Shown here one piece after another: positions 30,694 through 43,523 of a stretch of DNA of 43,664 bases. The stretch lies in sequence record LR597645; one strand, given 5' to 3'. The notes below the pieces were generated by a model that saw only the letters and a program-made list of their open reading frames with translations, was not told where the DNA came from and searched no databases. The number at the start of each line of letters is the position of its first letter. Within the stretch, counting starts at the first letter, position 1. A program made the position numbers and the translations under genes. Origin of the DNA: Escherichia phage Fraca.

Positions 30694-30796
30694 AAAGAAT
30701 CCTCAAACGTCTACTGGTTGCTGGCTATAACCGCGGCTTTTTGCGTGAGGAATTCGTGACTATGTGCTTTATAAAATTCGATTTACGGAGTGTGTG

Positions 30797-32668
30797 ATGA
30801 CCCCTGCTGAGTTATCTGAAAAATTATGGGACAACGCCGAAAGAGTTGCGAAATACCTGCTTCCACGAGGACACCTCGAGGGCAAGGAGTGGTGCGCTGG
30901 TAATACCAATGGTGATGCCGGTAAGAGCCTGAAAATTAATCTCGGTGGTAAGAAGACTTGGGCAGATTTTGCAAGCGGCGACAGCGGAGACCTGCTTGAT
31001 CTTTGGGTTCTGGTGCGTAACTGCCAGCTGCACGACGCTATGCGGGAAGCGAAAGAGTTCCTTGGGCTGAAGGACGACGATAACCACTTCGAGGCGAAGA
31101 AAAAAACCTTCTCACGTCCAACCAAAAAAGGCGTTAAAAAGGCGAGCCATTGCTACGACTACCTCTCTTCCCGTGGCATCACCCGAGAGACAGCTGATCA
31201 ATTCCGTGTTTCGGACGCAGTCGTCTGGTACCACGATGAAAACCGCGAAATTCCGGCAGTGGCGTTTCCGTATCTTCGCAACGGTGAGCTTTTGCAGGTA
31301 AAGCGAATCGGCACTGAACGACCAAATGGCAAAAAGTTGATCATGGCTGAAGCTGATTGCGAGCCATGTCTGTTTGGCTGGCAGGCTATGGACGCGAAAG
31401 CTCGCGCTGTTGTGCTTTGCGAAGGAGAGATTGACTGTATGACCTACTCGCAATTCGGTATCAGTGCTCTATCGGTACCGTTCGGCGGTGGAAAAGGGGC
31501 CAAACAGCAATGGATCGAATACGAGTATCACAACCTCGACCGATTCGAAGAAATTTGGTTAAGCCTCGATAACGATGATGTAGGGCGCGAAGCCGCAAAA
31601 GAAATTGCTCGTCGTCTAGGGGAGCATCGTTGCCGCCTGGTAGAGCTGCCGCACAAAGATATCAATGAATGCCTGACCTCCGGGATGAGCGAGGATGAAA
31701 TCTGGCACTACTTGGGGACCGCTAAATTCTTTGACCCTGATGAACTCTGCTCTGCGGGTGATCTCCTTCAGGAAACACTGGATGCGTTCGAGCATCGAGA
31801 CGTTGGATTATTTTCCAGCCCGTGGGATTCGCTGAACAGTAATTTCAAATTCCGCGCCGGCGAGCTGACGCTGGTTAACGGAGTAAACGGCCACGGAAAA
31901 ACCGAGCTGGTGGGACATATCGCCGTCAATGCCATGAGCCAGGGAGTCCGGGTATGCATTGCCTCGCTGGAGCTTAAGCCTGGGAAAATGTTGGCTCGTC
32001 TTACCCGGCAAACCATTTGTAGAAAAAACCCAGAACGTACTGAAATCATCATGACTAACGAGTGGTTTTCTGATCGTCTTTGGGTGTTCAAACTCACCGG
32101 AACAGCCAAGGCCGATCGCCTGCTGGAAATATTTGCCTATGCCAGACGCCGCTATGGAATCGATCTTTTCGTTATCGACAACTTGGCAAAATGTGGACTC
32201 GATGAAGAGGACTACGGTGGACAAAAAGAATTTATCGATACCCTCTGCGACTTTAAAAACGAGCACAACTGCCATGTTCTGCTGGTAACGCATGCCAGAA
32301 AAACAAACGAAGCTGCACCAACAGGGAAAATGGATGTTAAAGGCACTGGCGCTTTAACTGACATGCCCGACAACGTTATGGCCGTCTGGCGTAATATCCC
32401 GCGCGAACTGGCGCAGCGCAAAGCTGAAAGAATGGGGTATGAGAGCCTTGATAAGGACGAACAGACTGCTATCCAAATGCCCGCTTCGATGATCCGCCTG
32501 TTGAAACAACGTGAAGGGGAAGGCTGGATCGGAGACATAGGGGCTAACTTTGATTCCCGCTCACACCAGTTTATCGAGGGTGATAAAGGGCCCTTCAATT
32601 ACTTGGCCGGCAAACAGCAAAGTGAACTTGATATTGAGTGGGAAGCCACCAACGCAACGAGGTATTAA
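30797..32668 (+). CDS. DNA primase-helicase (Toprim plus DnaB/RecA-like ATPase)
   Basis: ATG at 30797; Toprim-like VLCEGEIDCMT; Walker A GVNGHGKTE; Walker B-like LFVIDNL. Confidence 0.75.
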   Translation: MTPAELSEKLWDNAERVAKYLLPRGHLEGKEWCAGNTNGDAGKSLKINLGGKKTWADFASGDSGDLLDLWVLVRNCQLHDAMREAKEFLGLKDDDNHFEAKKKTFSRPTKKGVKKASHCYDYLSSRGITRETADQFRVSDAVVWYHDENREIPAVAFPYLRNGELLQVKRIGTERPNGKKLIMAEADCEPCLFGWQAMDAKARAVVLCEGEIDCMTYSQFGISALSVPFGGGKGAKQQWIEYEYHNLDRFEEIWLSLDNDDVGREAAKEIARRLGEHRCRLVELPHKDINECLTSGMSEDEIWHYLGTAKFFDPDELCSAGDLLQETLDAFEHRDVGLFSSPWDSLNSNFKFRAGELTLVNGVNGHGKTELVGHIAVNAMSQGVRVCIASLELKPGKMLARLTRQTICRKNPERTEIIMTNEWFSDRLWVFKLTGTAKADRLLEIFAYARRRYGIDLFVIDNLAKCGLDEEDYGGQKEFIDTLCDFKNEHNCHVLLVTHARKTNEAAPTGKMDVKGTGALTDMPDNVMAVWRNIPRELAQRKAERMGYESLDKDEQTAIQMPASMIRLLKQREGEGWIGDIGANFDSRSHQFIEGDKGPFNYLAGKQQSELDIEWEATNATRY

Positions 32669-32669
32669 A

Positions 32670-32981
32670 ATGGATCGCCTAATTAGAGAAATGTCGTATC
32701 TCTTTACCAAGCAGCGTTTTATGGAGCTTCAGGAAACGGCAAAAGACATCGCAATCGGTCATAGTGATTTTCCTGAGTGTTTCGGTCTTATTGCTGACGC
32801 CATCGCTGAATTTGTTGAAGACACTCCTGATGATGAGTGGCGAGAGCATGAAAAAATCCTTATGCACTACGTTGCTATGCGTGTTCTGACGCTGTGGGGT
32901 AACGGCGATAAAGTGACTGATGTCCAGTGGGCACACCCTGGCTGGTTTGGCACTGCTGAAAAGGGGGAAACCATTCAATGA
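32670..32981 (+). CDS. Hypothetical protein
   Basis: 103 aa; ATG at 32670 two nt after the primase-helicase stop; overlaps the next start. Confidence 0.5.
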   Translation: MDRLIREMSYLFTKQRFMELQETAKDIAIGHSDFPECFGLIADAIAEFVEDTPDDEWREHEKILMHYVAMRVLTLWGNGDKVTDVQWAHPGWFGTAEKGETIQ

Positions 32982-33760
32982 AGTTGGAAGCATCACTAAA
33001 ACACTTTAGCCCTCAGGGTGTGCACATCAGCGACGACGTGAAAGGAACCTCTCCGGATCGTCTCACCGGCACTGATGTAATGGCGGCAATTGGCACCACC
33101 AGCAGCCGTGCGCGCTTCGGACTGGCGGCGTTCTTCGGTAAAGCGGGAATCAGCAAAACGGATGAACAGCTCGCAGTTCAGGCGCTGGCGCGATATGCGA
33201 TGGATGTCGCACCGAAGAATGTTCGCAAAGCAGCTGGTGGGCAGTTCGGATGGTGCATGCAGATGCTGGCACAATTTGCCTTTGCTGATTACTCCCGTTC
33301 AGCGGCTACCAGCGTGACGTGTCACAGCTGCAGTGGTACCGGGTTTATCTTCGGTAATGAGGATGTGGTTAAACATCCTGGTATTTTCGATGCAGACGGT
33401 GCCGAAGTGGTGGCTCCGAAGATAAAAAATGAGCTGGTGAAAAGGGTTTGCGGAACATGCGGAGGAAAGAAAGTGATCCTTGCCCGGTGCAGGTGCGGCG
33501 GTAAAGGCGAAGTGTTGGACCGCAAAGCGACTAAAGACAGCGGCGCACCGGTTTTCAAAACGTGTGAACGTTGCTCTGGTAATGGCTTCTCTGCTATCTC
33601 CTCGGCGACGGTACACCGTGCCATTCTGAAGCGTCTCCCTGACCTCCATCAGTCCTCATGGTCACGCAACTGGAAACCCTTTTATGAAATGCTGGTGGAC
33701 ACTCTGCGCCAGGGGGAGCGTCATGCAGCAGTGGAATTTGAGAAGGCGACAACTTATTAA
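32978..33760 (+). CDS. Putative late antiterminator Q-like protein with DnaJ-type zinc finger repeats
   Basis: 260 aa with four CxxCxGxG motifs; sits between replication genes and the late promoter/lysis region. Confidence 0.5.
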   Translation: MKLEASLKHFSPQGVHISDDVKGTSPDRLTGTDVMAAIGTTSSRARFGLAAFFGKAGISKTDEQLAVQALARYAMDVAPKNVRKAAGGQFGWCMQMLAQFAFADYSRSAATSVTCHSCSGTGFIFGNEDVVKHPGIFDADGAEVVAPKIKNELVKRVCGTCGGKKVILARCRCGGKGEVLDRKATKDSGAPVFKTCERCSGNGFSAISSATVHRAILKRLPDLHQSSWSRNWKPFYEMLVDTLRQGERHAAVEFEKATTY

Positions 33761-33802
33761 TATGATCGGAACAAATGGCGACACTTTTTTGCACGTTAGT
33801 GT

Positions 33803-33840
33803 TGACTTTGCATAAAACTGTCCTGTATGCTTCTGATTAT
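33803..33840 (+). promoter_or_regulatory. Candidate late promoter (PR'-like)
   Basis: TTGACT at 33803-33808, then 17-18 nt spacer and weak -10 (TATGCT); followed about 40 nt later by a terminator. Confidence 0.35.
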
Positions 33841-33876
33841 GGAGTATAGCGCCTGTAGATAATTAACCTCTAAAAG

Positions 33877-33903
33877 CCCGCCACGTTGCGGGTTTTTTTA
33901 TTT
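33877..33903 (+). terminator. Intrinsic terminator (tR'-like) in the late leader
   Basis: CCCGCCACGTTGCGGG hairpin followed by an 11-nt T-rich tract. Confidence 0.7.
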
Positions 33904-34195
33904 CCAGCAAGGTTTTTCTTCATTGCGTTTGTTATGTTGTGTTTTTTAACTGAGGGTCAGTTGATGAGCGCAGATGAAAACTTGTTGAGTAAAATTCAGG
34001 AAGTACGGACGGTAGAGGATGTGGAGCAAGTCAATTTGGGCCTTTCTAAAGGCTGGGTGATTTTGATGATCACCGAGAGCTCTACAGTCTGGGAAGATGG
34101 CAGCAAAAGCAGCCTTGTTACATATCACATGGGCAAGCCGAAGGCATTGCCGGTCTGATCAAGCCTTACCAAATCAAAAATTTCAATCATATATA

Positions 34196-34219
34196 GGCCA
34201 CCTCACGGTGGCCTTTTTT
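34196..34219 (+). terminator. Intrinsic terminator
   Basis: GGCCACCTCACGGTGGCC hairpin followed by a T6 tract. Confidence 0.7.
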
Positions 34220-34436
34220 GTTTCCCCTCGTTCTGAGAGGACTCATGGCAATGATGCATTGACCGTAGGAATGAATTCGGCGTAACTTATTTATGTGGTG
34301 AATTCTTTCTAAGCGAAAGGGCGTTCCAGTCAACTGCTATTTGCAGGTATGCGCGCGTCTTTGCTAACTGGGGCAGAGACACCGGGAGGCACCCGGCACC
34401 ATGACAACAACAATACAATTTTGAAATTCCTTGAGA

Positions 34437-34464
34437 GCCTGCCATAAAACGCAGGCCTTTTTTT
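34437..34464 (+). terminator. Intrinsic terminator
   Basis: GCCTGCCATAAAACGCAGGC hairpin followed by a T7 tract. Confidence 0.6.
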
Positions 34465-34613
34465 ATGGTTTTGTTAACTGCTGCTACGCTTTGAGTTGTG
34501 GGAAGTTCCTGAATGCCCGGTGGTTCTCCTGAACCTGGCGTGAATCAGCCGATACAGCTTCATCCGGGATGCAAGATCAACTCACACCTACCTCACAAAT
34601 AGTCAACTCATTG

Positions 34614-34641
34614 GCCCGCTTCATAAGAGCGGGCTTTTTTT
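34614..34641 (+). terminator. Intrinsic terminator upstream of the holin
   Basis: GCCCGCTTCATAAGAGCGGGC hairpin followed by a T7 tract. Confidence 0.7.
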
Positions 34642-34682
34642 ATTCTTACGCACAACACCCGCACACAGCGAGGTGAGAGACC

Positions 34683-34985
34683 ATGAAAATGAATGATTCA
34701 GGGAACATTTTCACGCAGTTCTTCGCGTGGGTAGCGGCTCTGGCGTCTGCAATCGGATTTACCACTCAGGATCTGGTGTTCATGTTCTTTGGCGCGGCTG
34801 GTCTGCTTTTATCCCTCGCCTCCTACGTGAACGGGCGTGTGGATGCCCGCCGAAAGCGCAGGGAAGACGAAAAGCGCACCCAGATGGTTAATGACTACCT
34901 GAAAGGTGTAGGTGATAAGCCTCTCCATGAACGGCCAGCAGCGGCAAGTGTAGTTGTTGAGGCCTTACAAAAGGAAAGTGAGTAA
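34683..34985 (+). CDS. Holin (class II, pinholin-like)
   Basis: 100 aa with two TM segments and a charged C-terminus; MKM dual-start-like N-terminus; immediately precedes the SAR endolysin. Confidence 0.65.
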   Translation: MKMNDSGNIFTQFFAWVAALASAIGFTTQDLVFMFFGAAGLLLSLASYVNGRVDARRKRREDEKRTQMVNDYLKGVGDKPLHERPAAASVVVEALQKESE

Positions 34986-35521
34986 TGGGAACCAGGGCAA
35001 AGTTAAGCGCGGCAGTTCTGGGGCTCGTCCTCGCTGGAGCTCCGGCTTCAGTTATCCTCGATAAGTTTCTGGATGAGAAGGAGGGCAACAGCCTGACGGC
35101 CTATAAAGATGGCTCCGGGATCTGGACTATTTGTCGTGGTGCCACAATGGTTGACGGTAAGCCAGTTGTGCAGGGCATGAAGTTAACGCAAGCCAAATGC
35201 GACAAGGTTAATGCCATCGAACGGGATAAGGCTCTGGCGTGGGTTGACCGCAATATCAAAGTTCCTCTGACCGAACCGCAGAAAGCCGGAATCGCATCTT
35301 TCTGCCCGTACAACATAGGCCGAGGCAAATGCTTCCCATCGACGTTCTATAAGCGTCTTAATGCAGGCGACCGCAAAGGGGCCTGCGAGGCTATCCGATG
35401 GTGGATAAAAGATGGAGGCCGTGACTGCCGACTGACAAAGGGTCAGAAGAATGGGTGCTACGGGCAGGTTGAACGCCGTGACCAGGAAAGTGCACTTGCC
35501 TGCTGGGAGATAGAAAAGTGA
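34985..35521 (+). CDS. SAR endolysin (lysozyme, GH24-like)
   Basis: 178 aa; N-terminal Gly/Ala-rich weakly hydrophobic signal-anchor segment; lysozyme-like [20 protein letters not shown]. Confidence 0.75.
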
Positions 35522-36063
35522 ATCCGTCTCCGTTAATTGCAGCAATAAAAGCCTGGTGGAAGCCGTTTTTAGTATTGATTGTTGTGGTCGCCGCGTTTAT
35601 CGCTGGCAATGTCTGGAGTAACCGGGCATGGGAAAAAAAGTGGGCAGACCGTGATAGTGCCGAGTCCTCGCAACAAGTCAACGCGCAGACCGCCGCCAGA
35701 ATGATAGAGCAAGGGCGAATTATTGCCCGTGATGAGGCCGTTAAAGATGCTCAAGAGAAAGCAGCTGCCGCGCGTGATGTTTCTGCCCGTTTGGCTGGCA
35801 CTGTTAGTCAGCTGCAGCAACAGGCAAGAAAACTCGCCACCCGCCTGGACGCCGCAAAGCACACCGCAGATCTTGCCGCTGCCGTCAGAGGCAAAACAGC
35901 CGGAGCCAACGCCACAATGCTCGCCGACATGCTCGGAGGTCTTGCAGCAGAAGCTAAATATTATGCTGAACGATCTGACGAAAGCTATCGAGCAGGAATG
36001 ACCTGTCAGCGTATTTATGACTCGGTGAGAGAGTCAAACAACCAATCTGGAGCCTCGCAATAG
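35518..36063 (+). CDS. Rz-like i-spanin
   Basis: 181 aa; N-terminal TM segment then Ala/Gln-rich coiled coil; GTG start overlapping the endolysin stop. Confidence 0.7.
35777..36001 (+). CDS. Rz1-like o-spanin lipoprotein embedded in the +1 frame of Rz
   Basis: ATG at 35777 encodes [14 protein letters not shown] (lipobox) followed by a Pro-rich sequence, wholly inside the Rz gene. Confidence 0.65.
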
Positions 36064-36894: not shown

Positions 36895-37015
36895 CCAACC
36901 TTGAGCGCATCGCACGCGCACATCAAAGAAAGTCTTTCAGCTGTGAGCCTGGGCAAACCGTTAACTTTAGGCGGCTTTGCCGTGCGACAGGCTCACGCCT
37001 AAAAGGAAACACCAA

Positions 37016-37858
37016 ATGAAACATTTACCACTTAAAGCCGTTATGACAGGGCTGGAAATCATCGAAACTGATGAAGGTTGTGAGCTGCACAGTCCAGCTG
37101 GCGAGGCGAAATACGATGCATGGGGTGCCCGCCGTGAAGTGAACGGCATACCGGAATACTTCCCGTTATCGATTTCAATGAAAAAGCGTGTACCTGCTGC
37201 AACAGACGTTAAAAAGGCTGAGAACATTACTTTATCCGGCGCTGCGACGGATGTTCTGTATTCGCTGTTCTTTCGTGGTGCATTGCAATGCGCTGAGCTG
37301 CCATCTAAATCTGGTGCTGCTGAGCTTCGCGAACTGGGGTTCGCGGTAACCCGATATACAGCGACGGAATATCTGAAGGAAAGTTATTTCACCTTCCTGA
37401 CCGCTGAAGGGCAGGAATTTGCCATTAAGCACCTGGCAGATACGCGCTTTGGTAAGCCGGTTGATAAACAGTATCGCGGCGCAATCACTATTGGCGTTGA
37501 GCTGGACACCTCAGACGTACAAAAAGCTATTGATGAGATGGACGAAAAAATCCGTAACAGCGAGGCATTCAAGATCCTTAAAGATGGCTGGAAGCATGAA
37601 AAAAACGGAACGATGATTATTAATAAAGGCCAGGTGTTCATTCGCGATGAGAAGAGTGCAGTAACCGTTCGCGTCGGTAAATTTGGTATTCATAGCGGCG
37701 TCGATATAAACCTTGATGAAATCATAAAAAACGCCCTAGCTTCTGATGCCGCTATTCAGCAAATCAGAAAGGATATTGCAACGGTTGTGGAAGATGAGAT
37801 TGCCAAAAAGCTTAAGCCCGGTGGCACAATATGGGATTGCTTACGACGTGGATTCTGA
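37016..37858 (+). CDS. Hypothetical protein upstream of the glycosyltransferase
   Basis: 280 aa from ATG at 37016; AAGGAAA RBS; no recognisable motif. Confidence 0.55.
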   Translation: MKHLPLKAVMTGLEIIETDEGCELHSPAGEAKYDAWGARREVNGIPEYFPLSISMKKRVPAATDVKKAENITLSGAATDVLYSLFFRGALQCAELPSKSGAAELRELGFAVTRYTATEYLKESYFTFLTAEGQEFAIKHLADTRFGKPVDKQYRGAITIGVELDTSDVQKAIDEMDEKIRNSEAFKILKDGWKHEKNGTMIINKGQVFIRDEKSAVTVRVGKFGIHSGVDINLDEIIKNALASDAAIQQIRKDIATVVEDEIAKKLKPGGTIWDCLRRGF

Positions 37859-37869
37859 CGGGAGGTTTT

Positions 37870-39327
37870 ATGCAGGTCACTATTGATGGTGTCCCGTTTG
37901 TTCCTGCGTGTGCTTCAGCGTCACGGGTTGGCATTGCCATTACTACCCACAATAGGCCAGACGTTTTAAAGCGCGCCATTGAGCAGCACATGAAACATCT
38001 GCCAGCCGGTGCGCTGGTGGTTGTTATCGATGATGGTTCCTACCCTGCAGCAGTAGTGCCTGACGGCGTGCAGCTGCTTCGCCATGAAAAATCACTCGGC
38101 ATTGTTGCCTCGAAGAACGCCAGCCTGTCAGCCCTGATGGATGCCGGGTGCGAGCATCTTTTTCTGTGGGATGATGATGCATGGCCCATCGCCGATAACT
38201 GGCACCTCCCTTACATCGAATCACCTGAGCCACACCTGGCTTACCAGTTTCTCGATCTGGCTGGCCGCAACAAGCTGAATGACCTTTCGGTGCTTTACCG
38301 TGATGATAAGCATGTTGCTTACACCGGGCAGCGTGGCGTGATGCTTTACTACCACCGCAGTGCCATTGAGAAGGTTGGAGGATTCGATCCGGTATATGGT
38401 CGCGGCATGTACGAACACAGCGACCTCGCCCTGCGCATTCATAACGCTGGATTGACTACGTGGTCTTATGCCGATGTGACTGATTCAGAAAAGCTGATTC
38501 ATTCTCTCGATGAGCATGAGGCCGTGGAGCGTTCGGTACCGAAACCAGACCGTCAGGCGCTGGTGGAACGTAACGTAAAAATCCACAACGAACGGCGTGA
38601 TACCGGGTTTACCGGTTATGTGGAGTACCGGCGGCAACGCGATGTGGTAATCACTACGCTACTGACCAGTCAGCCAGATCCGCAGCGTGGTACCAGACTG
38701 AAGCCAGAGCAGGCGCTTATTGCGAAATGGGTCGCATCTATCAAAGGCGGCGAAGCGGTAATTCTCGCTGACGAGTTTGAATATTCTCCACCGGGCCAGC
38801 TTACGGTGCGTGTGCCTGCGGTCGATATGAACGTGTATTTCCGCCGCTGGCTGCATATCTGGCAGCACCTGCGTGATCATCCTGAATACCGGTTCGTCTG
38901 GTGTACCGATGGAACCGATGTCGAAATGCTTCGCGCGCCGTGGGAAGAAATGGAAGCCGGAAAGGTGTATGTCGGTTCAGAACCAAAGACCTACGCCGAT
39001 ACCTGGGCAAAGCAGAATCATCCGGAGCGCATCTATCAGGAGTTCATTGAAGCGCACCGAAACGATGTAATGCTTAACGCTGGGCTGCTGGGTGGTACCC
39101 GCGCTGATGTGATGGCGTTCGCCCACGGAATTATTCGCCTTTACTACCGGATCGAGAGTTATCGTTTCTGGAAGAAAGAACAGGCTGGCACCGCGGTGGG
39201 GGATATGATCGCTTTTGGCATTGTCGCTAAGTCTTTTGGCGATCGCATTGTCACCGGCCCGCGCATCCACACAGTTTTTAAGACTGATGGTATTGGCAAA
39301 GAATGCGCTTGGTTTAAACACAAATAG
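37870..39327 (+). CDS. Glycosyltransferase family 2 (GT-A fold) protein with extra C-terminal domain
   Basis: ATG at 37870 with GGAGG RBS; GT2-like motifs GIAITTHNRP, VIDDGS and WDDDAW; about 250 aa C-terminal extension. Confidence 0.7.
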   Translation: MQVTIDGVPFVPACASASRVGIAITTHNRPDVLKRAIEQHMKHLPAGALVVVIDDGSYPAAVVPDGVQLLRHEKSLGIVASKNASLSALMDAGCEHLFLWDDDAWPIADNWHLPYIESPEPHLAYQFLDLAGRNKLNDLSVLYRDDKHVAYTGQRGVMLYYHRSAIEKVGGFDPVYGRGMYEHSDLALRIHNAGLTTWSYADVTDSEKLIHSLDEHEAVERSVPKPDRQALVERNVKIHNERRDTGFTGYVEYRRQRDVVITTLLTSQPDPQRGTRLKPEQALIAKWVASIKGGEAVILADEFEYSPPGQLTVRVPAVDMNVYFRRWLHIWQHLRDHPEYRFVWCTDGTDVEMLRAPWEEMEAGKVYVGSEPKTYADTWAKQNHPERIYQEFIEAHRNDVMLNAGLLGGTRADVMAFAHGIIRLYYRIESYRFWKKEQAGTAVGDMIAFGIVAKSFGDRIVTGPRIHTVFKTDGIGKECAWFKHK

Positions 39328-39333
39328 GCTGAT

Positions 39334-39843
39334 ATGAAAAAGACCAGAACTTTCAGTGAAAGATTCTGGGAAAAGGTCGTTGTTGCCTCTCCAGATGAAT
39401 GCTGGATCTGGAATGCGGCTAAGAGAAAGAGTCCTATAGGCGGTGGGAAGTATTTATTTTACGGGCATTTGAAAGCTGGAGTTACTGCTGGCGGGCCTGG
39501 AAAGATGATTCTTGCACACAGAGCTTCATGGGAACTTTGCAACGGACCTATCCCAGACGGATATTTGATTGACCATACCTGCCATAACACTCTTTGCGTC
39601 AACCCAAAACATCTTCGAATAGCAACACCAAAACAAAACGCTGAAAACAGGCATCGTCACTCCTCTGCGTCAGGATTTCGTGGCGTTACTTGGAATCGGG
39701 ATATGAAGAAATGGTGTGCTCACTATAAAGAGCATGGTACCCGTCATCACCTTGGTTACTTTGACTGTAAGCATGAAGCCGCTGAGGTTGCACGACGAGC
39801 CCGTAATAAGGTGTTTACCCATAATGATGCTGACAGATATTAA
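39334..39843 (+). CDS. HNH endonuclease with AP2-like DNA-binding domain
   Basis: 169 aa; HNH-like region around IDHTCHNTLCVNPKHLRIATPKQN; AP2-like FRGVTWNRDMKKWCAHYKEHGTRHHLGYF. Confidence 0.7.
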   Translation: MKKTRTFSERFWEKVVVASPDECWIWNAAKRKSPIGGGKYLFYGHLKAGVTAGGPGKMILAHRASWELCNGPIPDGYLIDHTCHNTLCVNPKHLRIATPKQNAENRHRHSSASGFRGVTWNRDMKKWCAHYKEHGTRHHLGYFDCKHEAAEVARRARNKVFTHNDADRY

Positions 39844-40414
39844 GTTTGTGGTGGTCGGTCATGTCTCTCGCATAGGTCATGCACAACGTCTTGCTGCGCT
39901 GCTGGATGCTCATCTGCTTATTGATGACGGTAACCACGGTGCGAACTGGAATCACCGCCGCGCGCTTGAGTGGGCAGCAGAACAAACCTGCCGGGTAGTT
40001 GTTGTTGAAGATGATGCGATGCCAGTGGACTTGTTCTTCACTTCAGTCACGAGCTGGCTTAACCGCTTCCCGGAATCTCTGGTGAGTTTTTACCTGGGCA
40101 CTGGCCGACCACCACAGTATCAGATGCAGGTAGCCGAACGTCTGATAGTTGCTGATAAGACTCAGGCTGACTACATCACACTGCCGCGGCTGATACACGG
40201 CGTTTGTTATAGCGTACCTTCTCAGCATATTGAACGAGTCCTTTCTCGATGGGACAGCAGCAAGCCCGCCGATTACGCTGTGGGTGATGCCTGGGGCGGT
40301 TCAGTGGTCTATCCGTGTTACTCGCTGGTGGATCATGCTGATGGTGAGCCTGTTGAGCGTCACCCTGATTCAGCGCAACGAACAGAACGCCGTCGAGCGT
40401 GGAGGTTAGCCTGA
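39824..40414 (+). CDS. Hypothetical protein, possibly nucleotide-sugar transferase-like (start uncertain)
   Basis: ATG at 39824 or 39827; VVVGHV...LLIDDG and VVVVEDDAMP resemble a GT-A-like Rossmann core. Confidence 0.4.
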   Translation: MMLTDIKFVVVGHVSRIGHAQRLAALLDAHLLIDDGNHGANWNHRRALEWAAEQTCRVVVVEDDAMPVDLFFTSVTSWLNRFPESLVSFYLGTGRPPQYQMQVAERLIVADKTQADYITLPRLIHGVCYSVPSQHIERVLSRWDSSKPADYAVGDAWGGSVVYPCYSLVDHADGEPVERHPDSAQRTERRRAWRLA

Positions 40415-40770
40415 TGCCTGCGTTAATACCGAGAGCATGCCGCAAGCGTGGCTGTCCTGGCACAACCACAGACCGCTCAGGCTATTGCCCCAAACACCTT
40501 AACGAAGGCTGGCAGCAGCATCAGCGGGGACAGAGCAGGCATCAGCGCGGTTATGGCAGTAAGTGGGACAGGCTGCGCCCAATCGTTCTCGACAGAGATA
40601 AACACCTTTGTCAGGAATGCCTGCGAAATGGAAGGTATACACCCGCTGAGACGGTGGACCACATAAAGCCGAAAGCTCACGGTGGCACTGACGATCTTTC
40701 TAATCTGGAATCAATTTGCCGCGGCTGCCATAAAGCTAAGACAGCACGCGAGCGCCTGAACAGAAATTAA
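40414..40770 (+). CDS. HNH endonuclease (HK97 gp74-like)
   Basis: ATG at 40414 with GGAGG RBS; Cys pairs and HIKPKAHGG...CRGCH HNH motif. Confidence 0.7.
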   Translation: MPALIPRACRKRGCPGTTTDRSGYCPKHLNEGWQQHQRGQSRHQRGYGSKWDRLRPIVLDRDKHLCQECLRNGRYTPAETVDHIKPKAHGGTDDLSNLESICRGCHKAKTARERLNRN

Positions 40771-40964
40771 GGGGTATTCGGAAAAGAGTGTGTACAGATC
40801 TTAGGTGTAGGTATAGAATCTAGTTGTTGCGATTCGGATTATAGTGAGTATCAGCAACATGAAAAAGGGCCGGGTGGCCGCTACCAACGAACCCACCCAG
40901 CCCAGCCAGTGGAACGAGTTAACCACTGGCTATGTGATTAGACCAAAAACGAGGAGAGTTGAGA

Positions 40965-41231
40965 ATGAATAGCCATCTAAAAGTTGAGCTTAACGCCACC
41001 AAGTTAGTTATCTCTATAGGCAAAGAAACTCTGTTACATGCTATTGAAACAGGTCGGTCTTATGGCCTTGGTGACATCAAAATCACAGACAAAGAGCTGT
41101 TTCTTGAAGAGGTTGTTCGTGAGCTCAACGCTGAGAGTGAGGATGGATCCACCCTAATACATGAGGCACTTGACCAAGCGGTTAGTAACGCACTTGATAA
41201 TGGCGCTGATGGCGTTGAATACGATGATTAA
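40965..41231 (+). CDS. Hypothetical acidic protein
   Basis: ATG at 40965 with GAGGAGAG RBS. Confidence 0.45.
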   Translation: MNSHLKVELNATKLVISIGKETLLHAIETGRSYGLGDIKITDKELFLEEVVRELNAESEDGSTLIHEALDQAVSNALDNGADGVEYDD

Positions 41232-41246
41232 TAGGGGGGAGGCGTG

Positions 41247-41465
41247 ATGATTACGTTAAGCGGTAAAGACTTGATGGAGCTACTTGATTACATCAGCCCA
41301 GACCGAGAGAGCGACCCTGAGCAGCTGGAGACTGAGGTAAGCGTCATCAAGATGGACAAGACGTTTGCCTCTAGCGAGGGGGATATCAGGCCGGCAGGTG
41401 TGTACGCATATCTGACAGAGTACCCTGAAGAAGGGCTTTATGGCCCGATTGGATCAGTTGAATAA
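41247..41465 (+). CDS. Hypothetical acidic protein
   Basis: ATG at 41247 with GGGGGAGG RBS. Confidence 0.45.
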   Translation: MITLSGKDLMELLDYISPDRESDPEQLETEVSVIKMDKTFASSEGDIRPAGVYAYLTEYPEEGLYGPIGSVE

Positions 41466-41477
41466 GCCGGGGGAACG

Positions 41478-42791
41478 TTGCTCAACCTACCAAATGTTGT
41501 GATTACCGGCAGGGATGAGGATGAGGAGAGTTACCTCATCCATGCCGAATCAGAAGCCACAGTCAGGTTGTGCCCTGGCTGTGGCTCTTTCAATTCCGTG
41601 GTGATCGGGAGCCGTAATCAGCCGTTCGTAGACACGCAGATGCATGCCAAGACGGTGCGGATCCTATTCACCCGCAAGCGCCTTAAGTGCAAGGACTGCG
41701 GAAAGACCTACTTTGAGCTGCTTGAGTGGCTACATGAGGACTTCCGCATGCCAACCCGCACCGTTGACTACATCATCAAGCGAGCGGCCAGAGTGCCGTT
41801 CCTGAGCGTAGCCAGCGAGCTGGGCGTTGATGAGAAGACCGTGCGCAACGTGTTCGCCAACTATGTGGAGTTCATCGAGAGCAAACACGACTGGCAGGCT
41901 CCGAGGGTACTCGGGATCGATGAAACACATTTCAGCCAAAAGATGCATCTAGTCCTGACGGATATCGAGCGAAAGACCCTGCTCGACCTCCGGCGAGACC
42001 GCTCTCAAGAGGCAGCCAAAAGCGCCATCGTTCGCCTTCGTGGATGGGCGGGCATTGAGATTGTCTGCATGGATATGTGGCGACCGTACAGGAACGCAGT
42101 GCGTGACATCCTGCCCAATGCAGTGGTTGTCATCGACAGGTTCCACGTTGCCAGGATGGCGAACGAGGCAATGGAGGCGGCCCGCAAGGGCCTGCGAGCA
42201 TCACTATCGAAGAAGGAGCGGATCAGGTTGAAGGATGACCGCAAGATACTGCTCAAGCGCCGAGACAACATCACCGGACTGAATGAGCTCGCCAGCTTCC
42301 ATTTCTGGACTGAGGAATATCCAGAGCTGATGTCTGTCTATAACGCCAAAGAGGCGTTCCTAGACCTGTGGCTCATGCCTACCAGGGACGATGCAATGGA
42401 GTATTGGGAGAACTGGCTGCGTATCACTGACAGCGAAACCAAGAAGCATTTCTCCCAGGCGGTCACGGCAATGAGGAACTGGCATGAGGAGATCTTCAAC
42501 TGGTGGGACTTCCGGTACACGAACGCGCTGACTGAAAGCCTGAACAACCTGATCAAGGCAGCTTTCAGATCTGGTCGTGGTTACAGTTTTGAGGTGCTCA
42601 GGGCCAAGCTGTTGTTCACGAAAGGGGGTCTTGAGACCACCGCAGAATCTCTCAACAAGCCGAGACCAGAACCCACTGAGATGATCCTGATCGAGGAGCC
42701 TGAGCTGTTTCTCCATGGCACCAGAATTGACATGCCAGTGCTTGCTTTTGATCTGGTTGCGGATCATACAGATACACACAACCAGAGTTGA
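41478..42791 (+). mobile_element. ISL3-family transposase gene (IS element or remnant; element ends not identified)
   Basis: 437 aa; N-terminal zinc ribbon CPGCGS...CKDCGK; DDE region with GIDETHF and VVVIDRFHV; TTG or GTG start. Confidence 0.7.
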
Positions 42792-42799
42792 TCTGATAA

Positions 42800-42833
42800 G
42801 AGCATTGATTTGATTGATATTTAATCAATGCTC
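42800..42833. repeat. Perfect 11-bp inverted repeat hairpin just after the transposase gene
   Basis: GAGCATTGATT-N12-AATCAATGCTC. Confidence 0.8.
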
Positions 42834-42872
42834 ACTCTAATCCGCATACCCAAATTAAGTAACGAGGTGAAG

Positions 42873-43523
42873 ATGACTGAATCGAAACATGGTTCAGGGC
42901 TTCCGCACGCCCATGCTGCCTGCATTGTGGATGGATGCGAATTATCGGTACGATCCCGTAACAGCCACTACTGTGAAAAGCATTACATGCGCGTCCGGCG
43001 TCATGGAACGACAGAGAAGCTCAGCACAAGAAAGGATGGCAAGCTGGAGCACACTGGCGGATATCTGCTGGTGTATGCGCCCGATCATCCTTTGGCATGT
43101 GGGAGTCCTCGTGTTTACGAGCACCGGAAAGTCTATTACGACAAACATGGGGCTGGACCGTTCCGTTGTCACTGGTGTGCAAAAACCGTTGGCTGGGACA
43201 CCCTTCACATCGACCACCTCGATGACTGTAAGACCAATAACGAGCCTGACAATCTTGTGCCAAGTTGCCCTGTGTGCAATCAGAAGCGAGGCGTAGACAA
43301 GATGAGAAAGACAATGCGAGAGAACTCCGACCGCAGATATACCGCTCACGGCAAGACGATGTGTCTTAACGAATGGGCGGATTACCTGGGTATTTCGAGA
43401 AACTCCATTGAGTATCGACTGAAGGCAGGCTGGGACATCAGTAAGGTGTTCAGCCCTCGCATTGGTAACAGTGGTCCCCCGAGCCGGAAACTGGCGAAAA
43501 TCGTGCATGAGTCGGTTAAATGA
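42873..43523 (+). CDS. HNH endonuclease adjacent to the terminase
   Basis: ATG at 42873 with GAGGTGA RBS; HNH motif CHWCAKTVGWDTLHIDHLDD...CPVCNQKRG. Confidence 0.7.
   Translation: MTESKHGSGLPHAHAACIVDGCELSVRSRNSHYCEKHYMRVRRHGTTEKLSTRKDGKLEHTGGYLLVYAPDHPLACGSPRVYEHRKVYYDKHGAGPFRCHWCAKTVGWDTLHIDHLDDCKTNNEPDNLVPSCPVCNQKRGVDKMRKTMRENSDRRYTAHGKTMCLNEWADYLGISRNSIEYRLKAGWDISKVFSPRIGNSGPPSRKLAKIVHESVK

Follow-up and report, generated by a model that had tools for sequence, protein, structure and literature searches.

The window analysed here is a 43,664-nucleotide stretch of DNA from Escherichia phage Fraca (sequence record LR597645), and all of the features located in it below lie on the plus strand. 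The first genes at its left end are those for the small and the large subunit of terminase; it also encodes a tail fibre protein and an integrase, and the gene that is the subject of this analysis is preceded by genes for a repressor of the CI type, a replication initiator and a primase/helicase. As read from the gene content, the layout is lambdoid with an antiterminator Q gene in its usual place. The open reading frame in question is real, with an ATG at 32978 and a stop codon that ends at 33760, and encodes a protein of 260 amino acids. Its start codon overlaps the stop codon of a 103-amino-acid ORF of unknown function (32670–32981; phrog_33270), forming the sequence ATGA, an arrangement that suggests coupled translation; the same small gene precedes Q in phage LMessi. 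On the other side lies the lysis cassette (34683–36063), comprising the holin, endolysin and Rz-like spanin (phrog_1350, phrog_7 and phrog_312), which are the first late genes. The original prediction, made from the sequence of the window, had assigned the ORF to the Q position, and this assignment holds, given that the gene is located between the replication genes and the lysis cassette and is followed by a late promoter and a terminator. The gene order around Q, together with the promoter and the intrinsic terminator, is conserved in relatives.

Several neighbouring parts of the genome show mosaicism or accessory content. The primase/helicase is a fused protein of 634 amino acids (30764–32668; phrog_239), whereas phages ST11-OXA48phi15.1 and ENT39118, with Q proteins 75–84% identical to that of Fraca, encode the helicase and the primase in two genes, so the replication module has been exchanged beside a conserved Q. 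The right arm beyond the lysis genes (36977–43523) carries accessory genes, including two glycosyl/glucosyltransferases (37831–39327 and 39716–40414) that are possibly involved in surface-sugar modification, three HNH-endonuclease-like ORFs (39334–39843, 40399–40770 and 42828–43523) and a transposase-like ORF (41478–42791) that may represent an insertion sequence.

A profile search against antiterminator Q families gave a confident match of the 260-amino-acid protein to the Pfam family PF03589 ("Antitermination protein Q"; E-value of 1e-52, 176.6 bits in two stretches, against a curated cut-off of 26.7 bits), the family that Yin et al. 2022 (PMC9388147) define as that of lambda Q. The PHROGs family phrog_127, "anti-termination protein Q-like", spans the full length of the ORF (E = 2.7e-100), so that membership in the Q family, one of the two possibilities that had originally been put forward, is confirmed. 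A sequence search of the PDB gave no real matches other than lambda Q chains (7UBM/7UBN, E = 2e-35; 4MO1; 7UBJ), with the alignment split into residues 1–122 and 169–245, and a BLASTP comparison with lambda Q yields 32% identity over the whole length with a single large gap. The homology encompasses the entire protein, including the N-terminal segment that in lambda Q forms the antitermination nozzle, which argues against the other possibility, namely, that a different zinc-binding regulator has taken over the role of Q.

The fold is likewise that of lambda Q. An AlphaFold2 model, computed from an input of 59 sequences, reached a mean pLDDT of 91.8 and a pTM of 0.80, and contains the expected helical body with a helix-turn-helix and a zinc-ribbon arm. 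When this model was compared with the PDB using Foldseek, the significant matches were lambda Q chains only, the best of them being 7UBN_Q (E = 3e-14, TM 0.84 on the target), that is, lambda Q within the NusA-containing engaged loading complex. The body of lambda Q has been described as a four-helix bundle with a helix-turn-helix (residues 61–113 and 153–207) from which a zinc-ribbon arm (residues 114–152) emerges, and NusA binding causes the N-terminal region to refold as a nozzle at the RNA exit channel (PMC9388147). Each of these elements can be recognized in the Fraca protein. Residues 1–60 (32978–33157) are the counterpart of the nozzle segment, with 29 of 60 positions identical to lambda Q; residues 61–110 (33158–33307; 22 of 50 identical) make up the first half of the helical body, with helices at 60–77 and 80–105 in the model; residues 169–204 (33482–33589; 17 of 36 identical) form the lambda-type zinc ribbon, or arm; and residues 205–260 (33590–33757), assigned by both alignment and model, make up the other half of the body, including the helix-turn-helix, and here SWSRNWKPFYEMLV aligns with TWSRTVKPLYDALV of lambda Q and 18 of 55 residues are identical. 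Between the first half of the body and the arm are 58 residues (111–168; 33308–33481) that are absent from lambda Q.

The feature that had drawn attention to this protein was a set of four CxxCxGxG motifs. Nine cysteines are present, eight of which do form four close pairs (115/118, 158/161, 171/173 and 196/199); of the motifs, however, only two are strict, CHSCSGTG (C115/C118) and CERCSGNG (C196/C199). The second, CGTCGGKK (C158/C161), lacks the final glycine and thus reads CxxCxGxx, and the third, CRCGGKG (C171/C173), has a single residue between its cysteines, so that the string CRCGGKGE, previously counted among the repeats, is a CxC out of register. Among 100,000 shuffles of the protein, 99 contained at least four C-x(1-2)-C pairs. 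Across 25 diverse homologues of the long form (alignment A4), all eight paired cysteines are invariant, so the pattern is not random. In an alignment of 37 sequences (A1), C171, C173, C196 and C199 correspond to C118, C121, C144 and C147 of lambda Q; these four ribbon cysteines are invariant or nearly so across the lambda Q family, and the spacing from knuckle to knuckle is 22 residues in both proteins. The first ribbon knuckle is CxxC in lambda Q but CxC in Fraca Q, as it is in most members of the family. In the model, the arm is built from two strands with a helix between them, as described for the arm of lambda Q (PMC9388147). Binding of zinc through cysteine knuckles, as originally proposed, is accordingly well predicted by the homology of pairs 3 and 4 with the zinc site of lambda Q.

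The two remaining pairs belong to the insertion, and in alignment A1 the short, lambda-type forms lack exactly the stretch that bears them. In the model, residues 111–168 fold into a β-hairpin (strands 123–133 and 148–157), with pairs 1 and 2 at its two ends, and from the alignment and the model we infer that this segment is a second zinc ribbon. Since the hairpin ends carry pairs 1 and 2, and pairs 3 and 4 match the lambda zinc site, the most likely arrangement consists of two tandem zinc sites, 1+2 and 3+4. The likeliest role of pairs 1 and 2 would then be to coordinate a second zinc and to clamp a β-hairpin of variable length at the base of the arm: the spacing between these pairs ranges from 10 to 59 residues among long forms, with poorly conserved sequence, and the hairpin of Fraca Q is slightly acidic (5 K+R versus 6 D+E). 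The simplest view of the additional zinc module is that it braces the arm structurally at its base. An origin of the module by internal duplication was also considered, but a BLASTP comparison of the two arm halves produced only a 10-residue knuckle match (E = 5e-4), which is too short for proof.

This architecture turns out to be common. HMMER, run exhaustively against 1.84 billion cluster representatives, retrieved 244 clusters of the family, and, of the 59 representatives that were listed with 190 amino acids or more, at least 30 have the four-pair form, counted as C-x2-C-x(10-59)-C-x2-C-x9-C-x(1-2)-C-x(22-24)-C-x2-C, while another 15 contain the lambda-type ribbon only. Pairs 2 and 3 are nine residues apart and pairs 3 and 4 are 22 residues apart with practically no variation, in contrast to the widely varying hairpin between pairs 1 and 2. 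The original description of the protein as an unusual Q therefore has to be dropped, the four-pair architecture being the commonest one among the family representatives; judged by these sequences, it is lambda Q that is a shorter form of its own family. In a word-indexed search, the best 120 clusters are all close homologues with at least 79% identity, from Enterobacter, Klebsiella, Citrobacter, Salmonella, Escherichia and Cronobacter, and are mostly named "antitermination protein (Q)". There are 249 matching records among deposited phages, and the identity of Fraca Q to phage homologues is 98.5% for LMessi, 84% for ST11-OXA48phi15.1, 75% for ENT39118 and 66% for phi467. A search of IMG/VR with the single Q protein added 420 relatives, all at 92% identity or more. 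Isolated phages and hundreds of prophages already carry near-identical proteins under the annotation antitermination protein Q; in the searchable literature, we found no papers on the long-arm form of Q and no experiments on Fraca Q. In the P22-like phage MG40, a long form of 257 amino acids lies directly 3' of ninZ, the exact place that gene 23, of 207 amino acids, occupies in P22, from which it follows that the long and short forms are interchangeable alleles. The Shiga-toxin phage phi467 (locus L005, 4854–5813) encodes a long-arm Q of 276 amino acids approximately 1.5 kb upstream of the gene for the Shiga toxin A subunit, and this subtype of Q may also drive toxin expression in some Stx phages.

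Immediately downstream of the Q stop codon lies a candidate late promoter, equivalent to PR'. Its -35 hexamer, TTGACT (33802–33807), is identical to those of lambda and P22 PR' and is conserved in 45 distinct IMG/VR variants of the region; it is followed by an 18-bp spacer (33808–33825) and a -10 hexamer, TATGCT (33826–33831), whose TA...T positions are kept in all variants. The lambda Q-binding element sits between the -35 and -10 hexamers. At the same place in the Fraca spacer (33808–33820), the sequence TTGCATAAAACTG agrees at 11 of 13 bases with TTGAATAAAATTG of lambda and is a candidate Q-binding element. Further downstream, GATTAT followed by GG (33835–33842) is a candidate sigma-dependent pause element, and the hexamer with its GG aligns with the lambda pause element AACGAT-GGG. 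Among the IMG/VR variants, two of which are without the GG, the pattern nATnnT at 33835–33840 is kept at the same position in all of the several otherwise divergent downstream versions, nearly always with GG after it. The alternative -10-like hexamer TATAGC (33845–33850) was rejected, as its key positions are not kept in these variants whereas nATnnT is. The distance from the Q-binding-like block to the pause hexamer is 14 bp in Fraca, lambda and P22. Between the -10 and the pause hexamer, by contrast, lambda, P22 and HK225, a long-form phage, have 6 bp but the Fraca group has 3 bp, which would put a conventional start site inside the hexamer and make the paused RNA shorter than that of lambda; given this spacing, the late start site and the pause position are uncertain. 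The promoter scan by itself performs at chance level (2 sites versus 2.5 expected), and the case for the module is accordingly built on the comparison with other phages. In the same 45 variants, a mosaic joint is apparent at the start of the late transcript (33826–33842), with the sequence from the Q stop codon through the -10 nearly invariant and the transcribed leader and terminator downstream present in several unrelated versions.

The promoter is followed by an intrinsic terminator (33872–33899), the putative tR' equivalent and presumably the first target of Q. Its CCCGC/GCGGG hairpin (33877–33892) precedes a run of seven T and has a centroid fold of -13.6 kcal/mol, in agreement with the terminator that had been placed at 33877. 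In relatives, this position is likewise taken by a GC-rich hairpin that precedes a T run, but the stem sequences differ. Three further terminator-like hairpins (34195–34214, 34437–34456 and 34613–34635) are found before the lysis genes; terminator-like sites are enriched in the scan (7 versus 2.8 expected), and the homologous stretch in phage HK639 carries a terminator annotation. A 64-amino-acid ORF with no PHROG match (33964–34158), between the first late terminator and the hairpin at 34195–34214, is absent at this position in LMessi and ST11-OXA48phi15.1 and looks like a small accessory insert, or moron, in the late leader. A full-length match to the STnc100 small RNA (RF02076) extends over 34266–34468 and scores 46.9 bits (E = 9e-9) against a gathering score of 47.0, and Rfam at gathering thresholds reported nothing within the window; the matching region ends in the terminator-like hairpin at 34437–34456. 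The surrounding segment (34257–34643) is 82.5% identical to a region of HK639 whose sole annotations are terminators and which lies 3' of a shorter Q gene unrelated to that of Fraca. A 2026 preprint links the related PasD small RNA genes to PF03589 Q genes and reports PasD variants that align with STnc100.

Taken together, these observations lead us to conclude with high confidence that the ORF encodes a lambda-family Q, the late-gene antiterminator of the phage, which by analogy would act through the lambda mechanism. Because the protein is homologous to the Q of the solved lambda complexes (PMC9388147), we infer the steps of this mechanism as follows. The helix-turn-helix body and the zinc-ribbon arm of Q would bind the site in the spacer of the late promoter (33802–33831) and engage an RNA polymerase that is held by sigma-70 at the -10-like hexamer at 33835–33840. 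Together with NusA, Q would form a nozzle at the exit channel of the polymerase, such that the hairpin of the terminator at 33872–33899 and those of later terminators would be blocked from forming. The polymerase would thus pass the first terminator and the three further hairpins before the holin gene and transcribe the lysis genes, with the head and tail genes probably following across the joined genome ends.

The main latitude within this scheme concerns the extra zinc module. It is conceivable, although we consider it rather doubtful, that the second zinc module of the long-arm majority is a functional specificity element, lambda Q being a deletion derivative of a four-knuckle ancestor; such an element might make extra contacts with the beta-prime zinc-binding domain of RNA polymerase or with DNA, and might tune the promoters or hosts for a given Q. 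Another reading, which we regard as improbable, is that the module changes how this lambda-family Q is loaded, through a longer DNA site or new contacts with the polymerase near the beta-prime zinc-binding domain. The insertion does sit exactly where residues 110–112, 117 and 122–126 of lambda Q touch the zinc-binding domain of RNA polymerase (PMC9388147), its two cysteine pairs are invariant in the long forms, and the distance between the -10 and the pause hexamer in the Fraca group differs from that in lambda. A hairpin that varies so much in length and is so poorly conserved in sequence speaks against altered loading, however, as does its slightly acidic character, which is unlike that of a DNA-reading surface; moreover, the long-form phages HK225 and YeP2 retain lambda-like promoter and pause sequences, and the Q-binding-like site of Fraca is at the lambda distance from the pause hexamer.

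It is very unlikely that the protein is a chaperone or redox protein with DnaJ-like zinc fingers whose gene occupies the Q position by coincidence. Database records do label some close homologues, 82–88% identical to Fraca Q, as "molecular chaperone" or "putative chaperone". The DnaJ central domain profile (PF00684) does match the protein, but at 22.7 bits, under its cut-off of 32.7; NCBIfam DnaJ matches are faint, and fold searches with the whole model and with the arm by itself returned no significant match to a DnaJ structure. A classification as DnaJ was rejected, and the label "DnaJ-type" that had been attached to the cysteine motifs is not supported either. The chaperone labels are probably mis-annotations that stem from the DnaJ-like cysteine knuckles. 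That Fraca Q is a decayed, non-functional remnant from a defective prophage is hardly credible: although long-form homologues occur in cryptic prophages, and the annotation of HK225 likens its Q to the homologue in the lambdoid prophage Qin, which is defective, the Fraca ORF is intact, its cysteines, promoter and terminator are conserved, the window has the full complement of genes for terminase, tail, integrase, repressor, replication and lysis, and a 98.5% identical protein is encoded by the isolated phage LMessi.

For annotation, the consequences are straightforward. The Fraca gene merits a confident annotation as late antiterminator Q, with the promoter/pause/terminator module as its target, and "molecular chaperone" is probably a misnomer for its close homologues. 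The discovery value is slight, as this is a Q of a common long-arm form that is already catalogued. The solved structures of lambda Q do, though, omit a zinc module that is present in most members of the family.

Compared with the systems already known, Fraca Q is closest to the other long-form Qs of phrog_127 (those of LMessi, ST11-OXA48phi15.1, ENT39118, phi467, HK225 and MG40, and the Qin-prophage-like proteins), which have the same architecture and genome position; Fraca Q is 37–98.5% identical to the phage proteins among them. The members vary in hairpin length and in the sequence downstream of the promoter, and otherwise nothing essential sets them apart from Fraca Q. With the 207-amino-acid lambda Q (4MO1, 7UBJ–7UBN), it shares the nozzle-forming N-terminus, the helix-turn-helix body and the zinc-ribbon arm, as well as the gene position, the resemblance in the late-promoter spacer, the candidate pause hexamer with its GG and the downstream intrinsic terminator. 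The differences are the 58 additional residues before the arm, with their two cysteine pairs and β-hairpin, the shorter distance from -10 to pause hexamer, and a terminated leader of roughly 60 nt as opposed to roughly 190 nt in lambda. The Q21 (PF06530) and Q82 (PF06323) families have the same regulatory role and lambdoid gene position (PMC9388147), but neither matched the ORF in a Pfam scan extended to E = 1. The resemblance to DnaJ is confined to repeated glycine-rich cysteine knuckles that, as predicted for Fraca Q, bind zinc. The spacing pattern is different, a J domain is absent and only two of the motifs are strict. In DnaJ, the zinc sites are interleaved, with pair 1 joined to pair 4 and pair 2 to pair 3, whereas those of Fraca Q are most likely arranged in tandem.
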